Of a stretch of 64,000 nucleotides of DNA, positions 3,150 through 43,868 are shown one piece after another (the stretch's first letter is position 1; every line of letters starts with the position of its first letter). The translations under genes and the position numbers were made by a program. The stretch is from Candidatus Omnitrophota bacterium (GTDB taxonomy: Bacteria > Omnitrophota > Gorgyraeia > Gygaellales > Profunditerraquicolaceae): assembly GCA_029561735.1 (NCBI GenBank), contig JAKQWZ010000064.1, positions 3,583-67,582 of the forward strand, in the 5' to 3' direction. A model generated the notes under the pieces. The model did not search any database. It was not told the DNA's origin and saw nothing but the letters and a program-made list of their open reading frames with translations.

Positions 3150-3221
3150 TGCCGAGAGAGGGAATCGGACCCCCTACGCCGGCCTTTTCAGGGCCGCGCT
3201 CTACCAATGAGCTATCTCGGC
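3150..3221 (-). tRNA. tRNA-Phe (anticodon GAA)
   Basis: Reverse complement GCCGAGATAGCTCATTGGTAGAGCGCGGCCCTGAAAAGGCCGGCGTAGGGGGTCCGATTCCCTCTCTCGGCA folds by hand into a cloverleaf with anticodon loop CTGAAAA. No CCA is encoded. Confidence 0.9.
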
Positions 3222-5851: not shown

Positions 5852-7858
5852 CTATTCGCTGATAACCTGTTTTATCCTGTTAATATGTTTGCGGGCTTCC
5901 TCTTCGCCTCTTTTGGCAAATTCTTCGGCGCGGTAAAGCTCAAGCCAGTGCAGCCCCTTGGTATCGGGGTGCAAAACCACGTCCGCAAGCCGCGATTCTT
6001 TACGGGCAAGTTCCGACTGCATTACCTCAACACTGCTGAATATTATATCGATTATATTAAATCTGAATTTCTCTTTCAAGAAGCTTTTTATACTGAATCC
6101 CTTGGGGTTCTTTGGCTTATTTGTATCCTTAGTAGCAGCCTCAAATTCATTGATGACGTCTTCTTTTGAAGGGGTTACGTTTACGGCAATTATCTTTTTT
6201 GCCCCTAAATATACCAGCGGCTCGACCGGCAAAGGATGGATTATCCCGCCGTCCAGCAGGAATTCCCCCTTAAATTTAAAAGGCATAAATACCCCGGGCA
6301 TAGAACAACTGGCCATAATCGCATCAACCAAAAGCCCGTCATCAATTATCCGCTGTTCTTTACTCCTTACGTCGCTGGCCACTATTTTTAACGGCAGCTT
6401 TATATCGCGGAAGGTCTTAGTGCCCAGCTGCTTTTTTAAAAAATTATAAAGCTTATTCCCCCGGATAAATCCCGAAAAGGGAAAGGTAAAGTCAACTTTG
6501 CCCCATACATCCTTTGGCTCTTTAAACTCCGCGGTTATTATCTTGAGGATATCGCCGCTTTTCATTCCTGACGCCCAAAGCCCGGCGATTACCGCCCCTA
6601 TGCTTGAGCCGACAATAATATCAATAGGGATATTTTCTTCTTCAAGCACTTTAAAAATACCGATATGGCAGAAACCATAAGCAAATCCGACCCCCAGCGC
6701 CAGGCCCACAAGGCAGTCTCCCAACTGACGGGAAATTCTTCTGACCGCTCTTGAATATTCCGAATCCGGGTTCTCCAGGATCTGCCTATCAGTTAATGCC
6801 TGTTCAATTTTAGGCAAAGTGGCGTAAATACTATGCCCGAGCAGCGCGATTTGCTGTTTAGTGCTTAGTTGGGCAAGTTTATATTCATTAACCAATACGT
6901 TTATCTTGGAATCCTGAAAATTAAATTCGTTTTTTAACCTGCCTATCAGCTCGCGCGTCCTGATGAGGTCCTGTTCTTGGGGGCTGGTCAGAATATGTAT
7001 AAATTCCGACTGATTTAGCACGGCGATTATCGACCAGTCCATCACCGAAGGCAGGTCAAGCATCACATAATGATAATCATTCACCACAATACTGATAACC
7101 TCAACTATTTTTTTTACCCAAGACTGGTCCCCGGGTTCATACCAGAAGCATATAACATCAACTCCTGTATTATCTTTGAGTAAAAATTCATCTAAGGCGC
7201 CTGAACTGATATTTTTCAAAACGCTCAAATCGCAAACCTTATATCCTTCAGATATGCCCAGTCTGGCAGGCAAAGTATGCATTTTAGGCGCAGGGCACAC
7301 ATCAAGAATAACGACCTTCTTATGGGTCTGGCTGGACAGGCTTAAGGCCAGATTGAGAGCATATACGGTCTTGCCCGACTGAGAATAAGAACTAAATACT
7401 GAAATGACCGTGCTTTCAAAAATCGTCTTCTGATGTATATCCTTATTCTTCAGCCTGCGCGATAAAGTCGAGCTTAAATCAATTGCCAGGCGCGGGACAC
7501 TTTGTAAGACAAAATTAAAATCCTCCCTTCTAATCACCAAAAGCATGCAGTCATTCATGGCTTTTGCGGATACCGAATGCGGCTCTCCGGTAATTAGTGA
7601 GATTATGCCGAAATATTTCCCGCGGTGCAGGTACTCCAACGGCACATCATCAGAATTGGCGTTTTTGGAATAAATTATTACTCTTCCAAATACTATACAA
7701 TAGAAAGCATCAGGCGGGGCGCCCTCCTGATAAATAACCTGCCCCTTTTGATAAGGAACAAGTACGGATTTATCTCTGATTATCTGATTTTCCTGCTCAG
7801 TAAGGCTGGCGAATAAAGGCAGGTCCTTAAGAATGGCGTCTTTATTTATTGTGTCCAT
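5852..7858 (-). CDS. Three-domain protein: cyclic-nucleotide-binding domain / ParA-CpaE-like P-loop domain / patatin-like phospholipase
   Basis: 668 aa. The N-terminus has a CAP-type cNMP fold (FASLTEQE...GQVIYQEGAPPDAFYCIVFGRV...YFGIISLITGEPHSVSAKA). The middle has SQSGKT, VVILDV and YVMLDLPS motifs. The C-terminus has GSSIG (GxSxG) and LLDGG (DGG), but an altered oxyanion box GVGFAYG. Confidence 0.8.
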   Translation of the reverse strand: MDTINKDAILKDLPLFASLTEQENQIIRDKSVLVPYQKGQVIYQEGAPPDAFYCIVFGRVIIYSKNANSDDVPLEYLHRGKYFGIISLITGEPHSVSAKAMNDCMLLVIRREDFNFVLQSVPRLAIDLSSTLSRRLKNKDIHQKTIFESTVISVFSSYSQSGKTVYALNLALSLSSQTHKKVVILDVCPAPKMHTLPARLGISEGYKVCDLSVLKNISSGALDEFLLKDNTGVDVICFWYEPGDQSWVKKIVEVISIVVNDYHYVMLDLPSVMDWSIIAVLNQSEFIHILTSPQEQDLIRTRELIGRLKNEFNFQDSKINVLVNEYKLAQLSTKQQIALLGHSIYATLPKIEQALTDRQILENPDSEYSRAVRRISRQLGDCLVGLALGVGFAYGFCHIGIFKVLEEENIPIDIIVGSSIGAVIAGLWASGMKSGDILKIITAEFKEPKDVWGKVDFTFPFSGFIRGNKLYNFLKKQLGTKTFRDIKLPLKIVASDVRSKEQRIIDDGLLVDAIMASCSMPGVFMPFKFKGEFLLDGGIIHPLPVEPLVYLGAKKIIAVNVTPSKEDVINEFEAATKDTNKPKNPKGFSIKSFLKEKFRFNIIDIIFSSVEVMQSELARKESRLADVVLHPDTKGLHWLELYRAEEFAKRGEEEARKHINRIKQVISE

Positions 7859-9079
7859 TTATATAAGTGTGCCTGTCCTGCAGACTTCGGAATATTTTTT
7901 TGCGCTTTCCCTGACGGTGCGTTTGAAATTGGCGTAATCCATCTCCACAATACCGAAACGGGGGCCAAAACCCTTATCCCACTCAAAATTATCCAGCAAA
8001 GACCAATATAGATAACCCAGGACATTGACCCCGGAGTTTATCGCCCGGTGCAATTGTGTAAGATGATCGCGTATGTAATTCCATCTCTGACCGTCATCAA
8101 GAGTGCAAATGCCGTTTTCTAATATAAAAACAGGCAGATTGTATTTTTTTATACCTGTCAATAAACTATACAGTCCTTGCGGGTATATATCCCAGCCCAT
8201 TGTATTCTTGGGCAGGGGCTTTTCGGGCTTACGGCTGGTATCCAGCGAAAAATTCCTTAAACTCCAGCCGCCGACATCCACGACGCTGCGAGTATAATAA
8301 TTCACGCCGATATAATCTAGCGATTTACGTCTGATCAATTTATCCAGTATAGCCAAATTAAACCATTGCTGCCTCAGTTTAGATGCGATATTATTCTTTA
8401 AATTTTCCGGGCTGGCGACAAAAGCCATCATATTATGGGCAATACTGACTCTGGGCCGGCCCAGATTATTGCGTTTATAATAGCTGTGAATAAAGCGGTA
8501 TGCCTCCACATGCGCATTAACCATATTTCCGGTTGCCACCCAGGCCTTTAGAAAGGATTTCTTTTGCGGAGGCCACTGCCCCATTATATAACCGTGCGAT
8601 ATCAAAACCATAGGCTCGTTAATAGTCACCCAGAACTGCACATGCTTACCCAGGGCTTCCACAACTTTATTGCAATAGCGCAGAAAATAACCTGCGGAGG
8701 CTTTATTTTCCCAACCTCCAAGCCGGGAAAACCAGATAGGATTAGTAAAATGATGCAGGGTAACAACAGGTTCTATATTGCGTTCTTTTAAGGCGAGTAT
8801 TACCTGAAGATAGTGGGCAAGCTCTAAATCAGAGAATGTGTGTTCCTGCGGCTGAATCCTGGCCCATTCGATTGAAAGGCGATGGGCATTATGATGCAGG
8901 CCTTTGACAATATCAAAGTCCTGTTCAAAAAGTTCATAATGGCAGCATGCTTTGCCTGACCTATCCTTTTGTCCAGTAACGATTTCCCATTCCCACCAGT
9001 CACTGTTAGAATTATCGCCTTCGACTTGATAAGCCGAAGTAGCCGCGCCCCAGAGGAAACCTTCGGGAAACTTTATCAT
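7859..9079 (-). CDS. Glycoside hydrolase family 1 (beta-glucosidase-like)
   Basis: 406 aa. FLWGAATSAYQVEG, TINEP (acid/base Glu) and ILENG (nucleophile Glu) are present. The stop codon directly abuts the patatin gene start. Confidence 0.9.
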   Translation of the reverse strand: MIKFPEGFLWGAATSAYQVEGDNSNSDWWEWEIVTGQKDRSGKACCHYELFEQDFDIVKGLHHNAHRLSIEWARIQPQEHTFSDLELAHYLQVILALKERNIEPVVTLHHFTNPIWFSRLGGWENKASAGYFLRYCNKVVEALGKHVQFWVTINEPMVLISHGYIMGQWPPQKKSFLKAWVATGNMVNAHVEAYRFIHSYYKRNNLGRPRVSIAHNMMAFVASPENLKNNIASKLRQQWFNLAILDKLIRRKSLDYIGVNYYTRSVVDVGGWSLRNFSLDTSRKPEKPLPKNTMGWDIYPQGLYSLLTGIKKYNLPVFILENGICTLDDGQRWNYIRDHLTQLHRAINSGVNVLGYLYWSLLDNFEWDKGFGPRFGIVEMDYANFKRTVRESAKKYSEVCRTGTLI

Positions 9080-9098
9080 GGGCTTATTATAGCATCAG

Positions 9099-9127
9099 AC
9101 AAAAAAAATCCCAACAAAAATGTTGGG
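9099..9127 (-). terminator. Intrinsic terminator, expression platform of the c-di-GMP riboswitch
   Basis: Minus strand CCCAAC-ATTTTT-GTTGGG followed by A then T8. It lies about 20 nt upstream of the GH1 ATG. Confidence 0.7.
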
Positions 9128-9140
9128 ATATATAAACTAC

Positions 9141-9257
9141 TGCCGATAAAGGCCTGCTACCTTTACTGCGGCAACCCAGCCACCATATTACCCCACTTCG
9201 GTAATTTAGGTCTGTGGCTTTGTGTCCCCGCCTTTCGGCGGGTTTACCCTTATCGGC
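9141..9257 (-). promoter_or_regulatory. c-di-GMP-I (GEMM-I) riboswitch aptamer
   Basis: The minus strand reads GCCGATAAGGGTAAACCCGCCGAAAGGCGGGGACACAAAGCCACAGACCTAAATTACCGAAGTGGGGTAATATGGTGGCTGGGTTGCCGCAGT...CCTTTATCGGC. It shares the GGYAAACC, GAAA-capped hairpin, GGGACNCAAAGCC and GGYNGCNGGGUUNCCG blocks of the Vc2-type aptamer, as I recall them. Confidence 0.8.
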
Positions 9258-9263
9258 AATTAA

Positions 9264-9292
9264 AGTATACCACGTACCCCTGATGTTTTCAA
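9264..9292 (-). promoter_or_regulatory. Sigma-70-type promoter of the riboswitch transcript
   Basis: Minus strand TTGAAA-17 nt-TATACT. The predicted TSS is about 9257, the first base of the outer helix of the aptamer. Confidence 0.65.
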
Positions 9293-9314
9293 GGGTACGT
9301 GAATTTTATTTATT

Positions 9315-41426: not shown

Positions 41427-43868
41427 TTATTTATTTATAATACGCAGAAAAATATCAACAATGTTAGGATCAAACTGGCTGCCGGAATTATCCCTGATTA
41501 TCCGCAAGGCCTTGGTTTTGCTGAATGCCTTACGGTAAGGCCTGTCCGAGACAAGCGCTTCATAAACATCAGCCAAAGCAATGATACGCGCGCCTATAGG
41601 TATTTCTTCTGCTTTCAGCCCTGCCGGATAGCCTTTCCCGTCCCAACGCTCATGGTGATAAAGCACCATAGGAATCACATTATGCAAAGACTGGACCGGA
41701 CGGATTATTTCCGCTCCTATCTGGGGATGCTTTTTAATTTGCTCGTATTCCTTTTTAGTAAGTTTGGATTTTTTAAGCAGTATTTTCTCCGGAATGCCGA
41801 CTTTCCCCAAATCATGCAATACAGCCGCCTGCTTGATATTCTCAATTTCATCGGCGGAAAGATTTAAAGCCGCGGCAATATCATTGGCATATTTAACCGT
41901 CCTTTCCACGTGCGCTCCGGTAGAATGGTCTTTAGCCTCTAATGTATGGGCAAAAGCAAAAACAGACTCAATCAAGTTCTGGTTTGAACGTTTAGTCAGC
42001 TTCTCAATCCTACTCTTTAAAAATTTGATTTCGCTGTTGGCCTTGCCGTTCTTAACAGGCTCTTTGTTTTTCTCCGATTTAATATCGCGGGATGAATAAA
42101 CGCGGTTGCCCCCTCTTTCCTTGGCTTTGTTCAATATCTTTTCCACAAGTGCCACCAACTCCATCCCATTTGAGGCCTGGTCCTGAGGATAGGAGGCTAC
42201 TGCTATGCTTAATTTTAACTTTACAGTATTTTTTTTATTGCCGAAATTATACAAATTCACGGCATCAAGAATACGCCGCGCCAGAATAAGGGCCTGGGGA
42301 CTGGTTATGCCCGGAGAGATTATGATAAACTCTTCACCGCCGAAACGTATTACAATATCATAACGCCGGGTAATTTTATTCAGTTGCCCGGCCAGTTCTT
42401 TAAGCACTTCATCTCCGAAAGCATGGCCATAGAGGTCATTAACGGATTTAAAATAATCCACATCCAGCATCAATACCGAAAGCGTATGCGCATACCTGCG
42501 GGCGCGGTAAAACTCCGCCTCAATAACCTCCTGTAAGTAATGATGGTTATAAAGCCCGGTAAGCGAATCCCTTAATGCCAATTGTTTAAGCCGGCGGTTG
42601 GATTGTATTAATTCTTTATTAAGGACTTCCACTTCCTGTTCTTTTTTGCGCTGTTTGGTTATATCGCGGACATATTCTATAGCGCCTACGATGTTTCCGG
42701 AGGCATGGTCTACCAGAGGAAAACTGAACAGGTCAAGCCATCCTTCTATTTTCTTGCCGGCATCGCGCAGCGGCACGATATAATTACAGGCCTTACCATT
42801 TTTAAAAGTCTCTGCTGTAGGGCAGACCTTACAGGGTATACTTGCGCCATGATAGGCCTGATAGCACTTTTTCCCGACCAAAGGCATTGCATGCGCGTAC
42901 CATTTCTCCATTGTTGCATTGACCCGGATTATATTCATATCCTTGTCTAATATGCTAAGCCCATCCTGAATGCTGTCAAAAATATTAGACAAAAACTGCT
43001 CCCTCTCAGCCAGCTTAGAAGTCCGCTCTTCAATCTTTATTTCCAGATCGGCATATGCCTTTTGCAGGGCAGCTTCGGATTTTTTGCGCTCGCTTATATC
43101 AACGTTCACCTCTGCAACAAGCCATTGCCCGGATTCATTCTTAAAAGGAATAGTGGTTACCTGGACCGGGCGGTTATTTTCTTTAAACAGGATCTCCTCT
43201 GTAACTACTGTCTGCTTTGATTCCAGGGCCTTTTTAACTCCGCAGGCGTCTCCGCAATGCCTGGGCCTGCCCATAAAATATTCGTAGCACTTCCTGCCTT
43301 TAAAATCCCCGTAGATCTTTGCCCATTCCGCATCTACAAAAACCAGATTATAATCCGAATCAATAATGTCCAAACCGGTTTTGGTTGCCCCAAGGATATA
43401 TTCAATCTGTTGTTTGAGAAGTTTGCGTTCTTCTTCGGCCAGGCGCAGTTCGGTATTATCATATATTACTCCCTGGAGAAAAAGAGGCTTGCCCATATTA
43501 TCTTTGACTACCACCCCTTCATCCCGCACCCATAATATATTGCCTTTTTTATCAAATACCCGGTACTCAGCTTTAAAAGGCCGGCCGGAGACGCGCGAAG
43601 ATATACGCTCAGCCAATACTTTATCGTGATCCTTAGGATGAATATTCCTGTCCCATAATCTGTCATCTTTCATATACTCATCCGGAGAATATCCTGATAT
43701 ACCTATAATCTGCGGGCTGACATAAAGGGTAGTGCTGATATTATCTAAAGCTGCGATGTAGGTTACTGCGGGTATCTGTTCTACTAAACTGCGGTATTTA
43801 GCTTCGCTTTCACGAAGCTGATTTTCAAGTAAGCTGTGATCTTGAAGGAAGTCTTTAGGCCTATCCAT
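41427..43868 (-). CDS. Multi-PAS sensor with GGDEF diguanylate cyclase and HD-GYP phosphodiesterase domains
   Basis: 813 aa. GGEEF with an RRYD I-site five residues upstream. HDLGK and HHERWDGKGYP are also present. Two PAS modules carry CY...CxxxC / CY...CxxCP cysteine motifs. Confidence 0.9.
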   Translation of the reverse strand: MDRPKDFLQDHSLLENQLRESEAKYRSLVEQIPAVTYIAALDNISTTLYVSPQIIGISGYSPDEYMKDDRLWDRNIHPKDHDKVLAERISSRVSGRPFKAEYRVFDKKGNILWVRDEGVVVKDNMGKPLFLQGVIYDNTELRLAEEERKLLKQQIEYILGATKTGLDIIDSDYNLVFVDAEWAKIYGDFKGRKCYEYFMGRPRHCGDACGVKKALESKQTVVTEEILFKENNRPVQVTTIPFKNESGQWLVAEVNVDISERKKSEAALQKAYADLEIKIEERTSKLAEREQFLSNIFDSIQDGLSILDKDMNIIRVNATMEKWYAHAMPLVGKKCYQAYHGASIPCKVCPTAETFKNGKACNYIVPLRDAGKKIEGWLDLFSFPLVDHASGNIVGAIEYVRDITKQRKKEQEVEVLNKELIQSNRRLKQLALRDSLTGLYNHHYLQEVIEAEFYRARRYAHTLSVLMLDVDYFKSVNDLYGHAFGDEVLKELAGQLNKITRRYDIVIRFGGEEFIIISPGITSPQALILARRILDAVNLYNFGNKKNTVKLKLSIAVASYPQDQASNGMELVALVEKILNKAKERGGNRVYSSRDIKSEKNKEPVKNGKANSEIKFLKSRIEKLTKRSNQNLIESVFAFAHTLEAKDHSTGAHVERTVKYANDIAAALNLSADEIENIKQAAVLHDLGKVGIPEKILLKKSKLTKKEYEQIKKHPQIGAEIIRPVQSLHNVIPMVLYHHERWDGKGYPAGLKAEEIPIGARIIALADVYEALVSDRPYRKAFSKTKALRIIRDNSGSQFDPNIVDIFLRIINK

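Follow-up and report, generated by a model that had tools for sequence, protein, structure and literature searches.

The commonest riboswitch design places an aptamer and an intrinsic terminator before a gene, and in the EutX and Rli55 B12 riboswitch sRNAs the ligand determines whether an early or a late terminator is used, so that short or long RNA isoforms result. The prototype of the c-di-GMP-I riboswitch family (RF01051) is Vc2 of Vibrio cholerae. In this family G20 and C92 recognize the two guanines of c-di-GMP (PMC6140456, PMC5888326), and position 20 is A in cGAMP riboswitches (PMC6140456). In Bc1, from Bacillus thuringiensis, SHAPE-MaP has shown that c-di-GMP unfolds the first of two terminators (T1), while the second (T2) stays intact and masks the response (PMC11218506). 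The merRNA of Bdellovibrio bacteriovorus is a c-di-GMP-I aptamer in a transcription unit of its own and has been proposed not to regulate a downstream open reading frame (PMC3627812).

The locus considered in this study is the 235-nt gap (9080-9314) between two genes on the minus strand, PG_binding_1 and GH1, within a stretch of 64,000 nt of DNA that I will refer to as the window. The DNA comes from Candidatus Omnitrophota, a phylum whose members are uncultured and very small; a literature search for riboswitches in Omnitrophota found no relevant report. The first-pass annotation of the window proposed that the gap holds a regulatory cassette on the minus strand, and its promoter, its aptamer and its hairpin were each found by sequence scans. 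The reading I favor, with a probability of about one half, is that the locus is a dual-terminator c-di-GMP-I riboswitch transcription unit in which only the first terminator can respond to ligand. Control of GH1 by the riboswitch is probably not exerted in the textbook way. The starts, ends and ligand effects given below are predictions from sequence, folding energies and conservation. The features of the locus, in the order of transcription, are these:

9749-9315, minus strand: PG_binding_1 gene, upstream of the riboswitch
9270..9302, minus strand: terminator-like hairpin of the PG_binding_1 gene, TCACGTACCC...GGGGTACGTGG, 14 pairs (7 of them G-C), tail TATACTTTAA
9264..9292, minus strand: predicted promoter P1, with -35 TTGAAA (9292-9287), a 17-nt spacer and TG-extended -10 TATACT (9269-9264)
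9167..9258, minus strand: c-di-GMP-I aptamer, recognized by covariance model, covariation and ligand triad
9247..9257, minus strand: strand A, GCCGAUAAGGG, 5'-terminal in both transcript and aptamer, including the equivalents of G14-G21
9127..9173, minus strand: predicted terminator T1, UGCCG (9173-9169) pairing with CGGCA (9145-9141), hairpin 9173-9141, dG -13.1 kcal/mol
9160..9166, minus strand: strand A', GUAAAGG, a mimic of A that pairs locally with the 5' half of B
9142..9152, minus strand: strand B, CCUUUAUCGGC, complementary to A and to the GCCG of the aptamer 3' strand plus A'
9101..9129, minus strand: predicted terminator T2, AUCCCAAC-AUUUUU-GUUGGGAU and a U-run, dG about -13 kcal/mol
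9086..9114, minus strand: predicted promoter P2 of GH1, with -35 TTGGGA (9114-9109), a 17-nt spacer and TG-extended -10 TGCTATAAT (9094-9086)
7859..9079, minus strand: GH1 family glycosidase gene (406 aa), first gene of the operon
5852-7858, minus strand: cNMP-binding/ParA-like/patatin gene, second in the operon after GH1

An open reading frame on the opposite strand that overlaps the aptamer (8969..9283, plus) was treated as spurious. All named relatives of the GH1 protein are from Candidatus Omnitrophota, a JGI metagenome contig carries the identical locus, and the closest divergent relative, L085 (a MAG contig, GCA_026387535.1), has a GH1 protein 84% identical and the same gene order as the window. 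The second gene of the operon, whose start abuts the GH1 stop, encodes a 668-aa protein in which a patatin phospholipase domain is combined with a cyclic-nucleotide-binding domain and a ParA/MinD-like ATPase region. This gene travels with the riboswitch module, in L125 lying directly after it, and its product matches the CBASS lipase model weakly (22 bits, the cut-off being 200). Elsewhere in the window, 41427-43868 (minus strand) encodes an 813-aa protein in which two PAS regions accompany a GGDEF domain (with the motif GGEEF) and an HD domain of the HD-GYP type. It is likely a c-di-GMP synthase/hydrolase, so that c-di-GMP turnover would exist in the organism.

The search with RF01051 that the first-pass annotation had recommended gave a match on the minus strand at 9258..9167, covering the full length of the model (1-87), with a score of 82.4 bits (E = 1.1e-14) against a gathering score of 35. 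This score lies near the top of the range of the family, and the match is the only one to a riboswitch in an Rfam scan of the whole 64-kb window, where the other Rfam matches are two tRNA genes (2803-2875 and 3150-3221, minus strand). The Vc2 nucleotides G20, A47 and C92 have their equivalents in G9248, A9221 and C9171, and G, A and C occupy these positions in all homologous modules that could be parsed. Read directly from the sequence are the GAAA tetraloop of the first hairpin (9236-9233) and its receptor in the second, CCUAAA (9210-9205) and UAUGG (9187-9183). In an alignment of nine diverse homologues, scored on the Rfam helices, 95.3% of the cells are paired and 10 pairs have changed on both sides; none of 500 shuffles reached the observed covariation score, and controls slid along the alignment were 30-44% paired. 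The pairing in homologous loci therefore agrees with the aptamer structure, as do the covariance score and the ligand triad, and the proposed GEMM-I identity may be considered confirmed as far as sequence can do so: a bona fide c-di-GMP-I aptamer, predicted to bind c-di-GMP. As an aptamer it adds one more ordinary example to a well-known family.

Two related classes were ruled out. The cGAMP riboswitches (GEMM-Ib) are set apart by position 20, whose equivalent is G in the window and in all 25 modules considered. The c-di-GMP-I-GGC variant (RF03167) is distinguished by a G right after GACGC, at position 47, where 22 of 22 parsed modules have A; the window itself is assigned to RF01051, and some relatives score better with RF03167 yet lack its G after GACGC, among them L085, which has A. 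The aptamer of L085 (2820-2911) also has AAAA where a GAAA tetraloop would be expected, which should weaken the docking of tetraloop and receptor.

Leaders were compared among 26 homologous modules from Candidatus Omnitrophota loci. Rfam scans of about 78 of 80 GH1 loci from species-representative genomes placed an aptamer of the GEMM-I clan just 5' of GH1 in 11 Omnitrophota loci and found none in the distant GH1 loci, while a pattern scan of metagenomes gave 120 matches, of which about 15 are real modules and the rest mostly chance. The order of the module is constant: P1; strand A, GCCGAUAA(A/G)GG, with which the RNA begins; the aptamer, whose insertions vary; GCUGGGUUGCCGAA; the variable, purine-rich A'; strand B, CCUUUAUCGGC; a linker of 8-29 nt, U-rich and then A-rich; T2, AAUCCCAAC...GUUGGGAUU, with its U-tract; and (G)TGnTATAAT shortly before an ATG. 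In the window, as in most modules, GH1 follows T2 at a distance of 20 nt, a co-directional reading frame downstream of the riboswitch; in L198 the module stands between genes on the opposite strand and has no co-directional gene downstream. In a rough, quick neighbor-joining tree of GH1, the loci with riboswitches form a basal grade of the Omnitrophota clade, and at least two clades have no riboswitch, which suggests an old element that has been lost several times. One of the more distant GH1 loci, L049, has a match to a group I intron (677-1013, 86.6 bits) adjoining tRNA genes, unrelated to the module.

The first-pass annotation placed a TTGAAA-17-TATACT promoter before the aptamer, with its start at about 9257, and this element, P1, is indeed present at 9292..9264. 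Its hexamers match the consensus at 10 of 12 positions, in a region where three promoter-like sites were observed and 0.8 expected, and its predicted start, near G9257, coincides with the first nucleotides of the aptamer. P1 is kept in 26 of 26 modules as TTGNAA, a spacer of 16-17 nt and a TATACT-like hexamer, 6-9 nt 5' of GCCGAU. What went unnoticed in the first pass is that the -35 hexamer of P1 sits in the loop of the terminator-like hairpin of the PG_binding_1 gene (9270-9302). This is the second overlap of a terminator with a promoter in the same intergenic region, and homologues have similar small hairpins around TTGAAAA.

Also overlooked was strand B (9152-9142), which is CCUUUAUCGGC exactly in 25 of the 26 tabulated modules (CCUUUGUCGGC in L047); the strand B recorded for L022 is UCUUUAUCGGC. 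The helix between A and B is the minimum-energy fold, with 11 bp in general and 15 bp in the window, and in 12 homologues it forms with a probability of about 1. Among homologues A and B are paired in 100% of cells, and such changes as occur are compatible with wobble pairing, with no compensatory double changes. The sequence of A' varies among homologues and its pairing is kept. Pairing of B with the start of GH1 (CUUUAUC/GAUAAAG) was considered and rejected, being found in the window only and absent from L085 and other homologues.

The base of T1 uses the equivalents of C92 and C93 of the aptamer. A T1 hairpin built on the aptamer's GCC(G) occurs in 25 of 25 modules, with dG from -9 to -26 kcal/mol, and is followed in 21 of the 25 by a tail with at least 5 U in 8 nt, in the manner of a classical riboswitch terminator. 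The tail in the window, GUAGUUUAUAUAUC (AGUAGUUUAUAUAU), is among the weaker ones, a poor U-tract with 4 U in its best 8 nt, and that of L085, AUGUUUUUUAC, is better. When the aptamer is enforced in folding, the base of T1 opens. In the subtype with GCCAAA, however, the 5'-GCC is still paired with the GGC of B in the aptamer-enforced fold, and T1 may not be fully relieved there. In 8 of 9 modules the apo fold is more stable than the aptamer-enforced secondary structure by 9-24 kcal/mol (by 45.5 in the divergent L198), so that the switch must be kinetic or draw on large tertiary and ligand energies. I infer that the ligand-sensitive, terminator-like element of this family would be the upstream T1 and not T2, its response coming from the nucleotides that it shares with the aptamer.

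T2 is the hairpin that the first-pass annotation described, CCCAAC/GUUGGG with a U8 tract, about 20 nt before the GH1 ATG. As DNA it reads ATCCCAAC-ATTTTT-GTTGGGAT at 9129..9108, with a T-run to 9101 and the ATG 20 nt further on. The earlier description missed P2, TTGGGA-17-TATAAT, whose -35 hexamer lies within the 3' arm of T2 and whose spacer is the U-tract of T2. The -10 element, TGCTATAAT, ends 6 nt before the ATG, and the predicted start falls on A9079, the A of the ATG, or beside it, so the mRNA made from P2 should have no leader or almost none; GH1 lacks a Shine-Dalgarno sequence. A TATAAT stands 16-18 nt from the TTGGGA of the T2 3' arm in 21 of 26 modules, and in GH1 orthologues that have no riboswitch TGnTATAAT is retained 6-7 nt 5' of the ATG, together with a TTGGGA-like -35. 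Chance occurrence of the TATAAT was rejected on the strength of that conservation. Throughout the window, TATAAT-like hexamers are enriched about sevenfold at 5-11 nt before start codons, which suggests that leaderless or very short-leadered mRNAs are frequent in this Omnitrophota genome, alongside genes with a strong GGAGG. Starts without a Shine-Dalgarno sequence that have such a hexamer 6-10 nt upstream are at 9079, 25149, 33826, 41246, 60651 and 62786 (minus strand) and 62852 (plus strand). In L007 (2831-3000), L107, L140, L125 and L205 a structured insert of about 70-170 nt separates the -10 of P2 from the GH1 ATG. It begins with AAGTGAG and ends with GCTCATTA, gave no Rfam match in a scan of L007, and may represent either a small mobile insert or a further leader element.

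The first-pass annotation predicted c-di-GMP-controlled transcription termination, which amounts to a single expression platform in which c-di-GMP would decide whether T2 forms and GH1 would be attenuated in the classical manner. T2 is a good intrinsic terminator between aptamer and gene, as that account needs, but I consider the account very unlikely. In 12 homologues T2 forms with a probability of about 1 in the apo ensembles, and with the aptamer enforced and the junction nucleotides blocked it persists unchanged in the minimum-energy fold. Pair probabilities in transcripts truncated 5' of its 3' arm disclosed no conserved partner for its 5' arm in these homologues, none of which has a sequence that competes for either arm, and manual trials of an antiterminator from GCUGGGUU, GUGGGGUAAUAU or CCUAA reached no more than 4-6 weak pairs, which L085 does not keep. 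The same hairpin stands directly behind the upstream PG-binding gene in five loci that have no riboswitch (L029, L031, L040, L043 and L044). Its 3' arm and T-tract double as the -35 and spacer of a promoter that serves GH1 independently of the riboswitch, and an mRNA produced by read-through would offer ribosomes only an internal AUG without a Shine-Dalgarno sequence. Furthermore, the 5' arm of T2 is kept in all loci with riboswitches and in those with a co-directional upstream gene, and loci whose upstream gene is divergent have lost it, a pattern that speaks for the importance of halting incoming polymerases at P2 and against simple read-through. Other accounts of the hairpin were also rejected: a generic genome repeat, since it occurs once in 64 kb (0.03 expected) and is bound to this site in related loci, and a dimeric transcription-factor operator, since insertions of 20-86 nt in the loop leave the stem in place (L045, L032, L047, L187, L094) and so point to an RNA hairpin. 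The insertions in L047 (1995-2094) and L187 are a nearly identical structured element of 86 nt, with the closing stem intact; those in L045, L032 and L094 are 21-53 nt long. The presence of T2 and P2 in orthologues without riboswitches, the missing Shine-Dalgarno sequence and the TATAAT enrichment together suggest that T2, which the folds show as blind to ligand, is a terminator older than the riboswitch and fused to P2.

If GH1 is expressed from P2 only, then the RNA running from P1 to T1 or T2 might be a stand-alone c-di-GMP-binding RNA like merRNA, serving as a buffer or store of c-di-GMP or having its effect in trans, and its neighborhood would persist because T2 and P2 physically overlap. 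I regard this as possible though doubtful. It would make sense of a near-consensus promoter and a strong ligand-blind terminator followed by a gene with its own promoter, of the L198 module with no co-directional gene behind it, and of the T2 5' arm, which all modules retain and which would oppose read-through; and merRNA provides the precedent (PMC3627812). However, nearly every module immediately precedes one and the same operon (represented by GH1, or by the patatin gene or small membrane gene that accompanies it), a context preserved even where GH1 has diverged to about 50% identity, and a simple sponge needs neither an invariant anti-aptamer strand B nor a ligand-gated T1. Alternatively, the switch may be masked or in decay: the aptamer would bind c-di-GMP, but with T2 always terminating and the U-tract of T1 eroded in this lineage, expression would not change. 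The T1 tail of the window, with its 4 U in the best 8 nt, the AAAA loop of L085, the loss of the riboswitch from several GH1 clades and the similar masking of Bc1 in vivo (PMC11218506) all fit decay, which is nonetheless quite unlikely in view of the strong purifying selection that P1, both strands A and B and the core of the aptamer have undergone across 26 loci, the compensatory changes in the helices and the near-top score of the window's own aptamer.

In the dual-terminator reading, RNA initiated at P1 would begin with GCCGAU, that is, with strand A, the 5' strand of the aptamer. Without ligand, B would pair with A or with the 3' GCCG of the aptamer, destroying the binding pocket and bringing a stem up against the U-rich tract of T1. 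With c-di-GMP bound, A and GCCG would be held within the aptamer, B would be left with only the decoy A', and the base of T1 could not close. Polymerase relieved of T1 would proceed about 40 nt more, to T2, which would stop it regardless of ligand and whose 3' arm and U-tract would form the -35 and spacer of the leaderless P2. The output is the least certain step: c-di-GMP may set the amount of P1-initiated polymerase that reaches T2 or leaks through it onto P2, the GH1-patatin operon being modulated in cis on top of its expression from P2. The effect on GH1 could come about through leakage at T2, occlusion of P2, hand-off of polymerase to P2, or there could be no effect. If T2 is efficient, then T1 may be gated without obvious effect on GH1, and since the U-tract of T1 is degenerate in the window, c-di-GMP may elicit only a weak or masked response there, as has been reported for Bc1. 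A more specific version, which I think unlikely, is that c-di-GMP chooses whether polymerases from P1 stop at T1 or reach T2 inside P2, where they would occlude P2 or, once terminated, be handed over to it, a gene without a 5' UTR thus being controlled through polymerase traffic and not through its mRNA leader. The joint of terminator and promoter also links the PG-binding gene to GH1 in the riboswitch-less relatives, a hint of a general chaining of leaderless genes by termination and re-initiation.

The locus extends c-di-GMP riboswitches to Candidatus Omnitrophota and would link c-di-GMP to an operon of GH1 and a cNMP-binding patatin protein that is conserved in the phylum. What is unusual is the predicted architecture: a ligand-gated T1, a ligand-blind T2 and, built into T2, a promoter that should yield a leaderless mRNA, all kept together across deep divergence. 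Classical attenuation does not easily explain this arrangement, which raises the question whether and how a riboswitch could regulate a leaderless gene and offers a test case for the puzzle posed by Bc1, namely why a riboswitch masked by a second terminator should be retained.

Compared with the systems described at the outset, the aptamer shares with Vc2 the two hairpins joined by a GAAA tetraloop and an 11-nt receptor, the G20/A47/C92 contacts and a short P1 helix made of the equivalents of G14-C93 and C13-G94. It differs from Vc2 in its host, Candidatus Omnitrophota, in that the RNA is predicted to start exactly at the 5' strand of the P1 helix, in the invariant distal strand B that complements both flanks of the aptamer, and in a downstream gene with its own leaderless promoter. 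In the EutX and Rli55 sRNAs the choice of terminator yields a long isoform, whereas here no payload for such an isoform was found, the extra 40 nt amounting to a generic terminator. The merRNA is massively expressed and has no conserved downstream reading frame, in contrast to the conserved operon that lies here within 20 nt. The closest precedent is Bc1, with two tandem intrinsic terminators after the aptamer, for which the same behavior of T1 and T2 is predicted here from pairing. Bc1, however, belongs to a 5' UTR of 267 nt that includes a ribosome-binding site and lacks an internal promoter, whereas the T2 of Omnitrophota appears to be fused to a leaderless promoter and to be older than the riboswitch.
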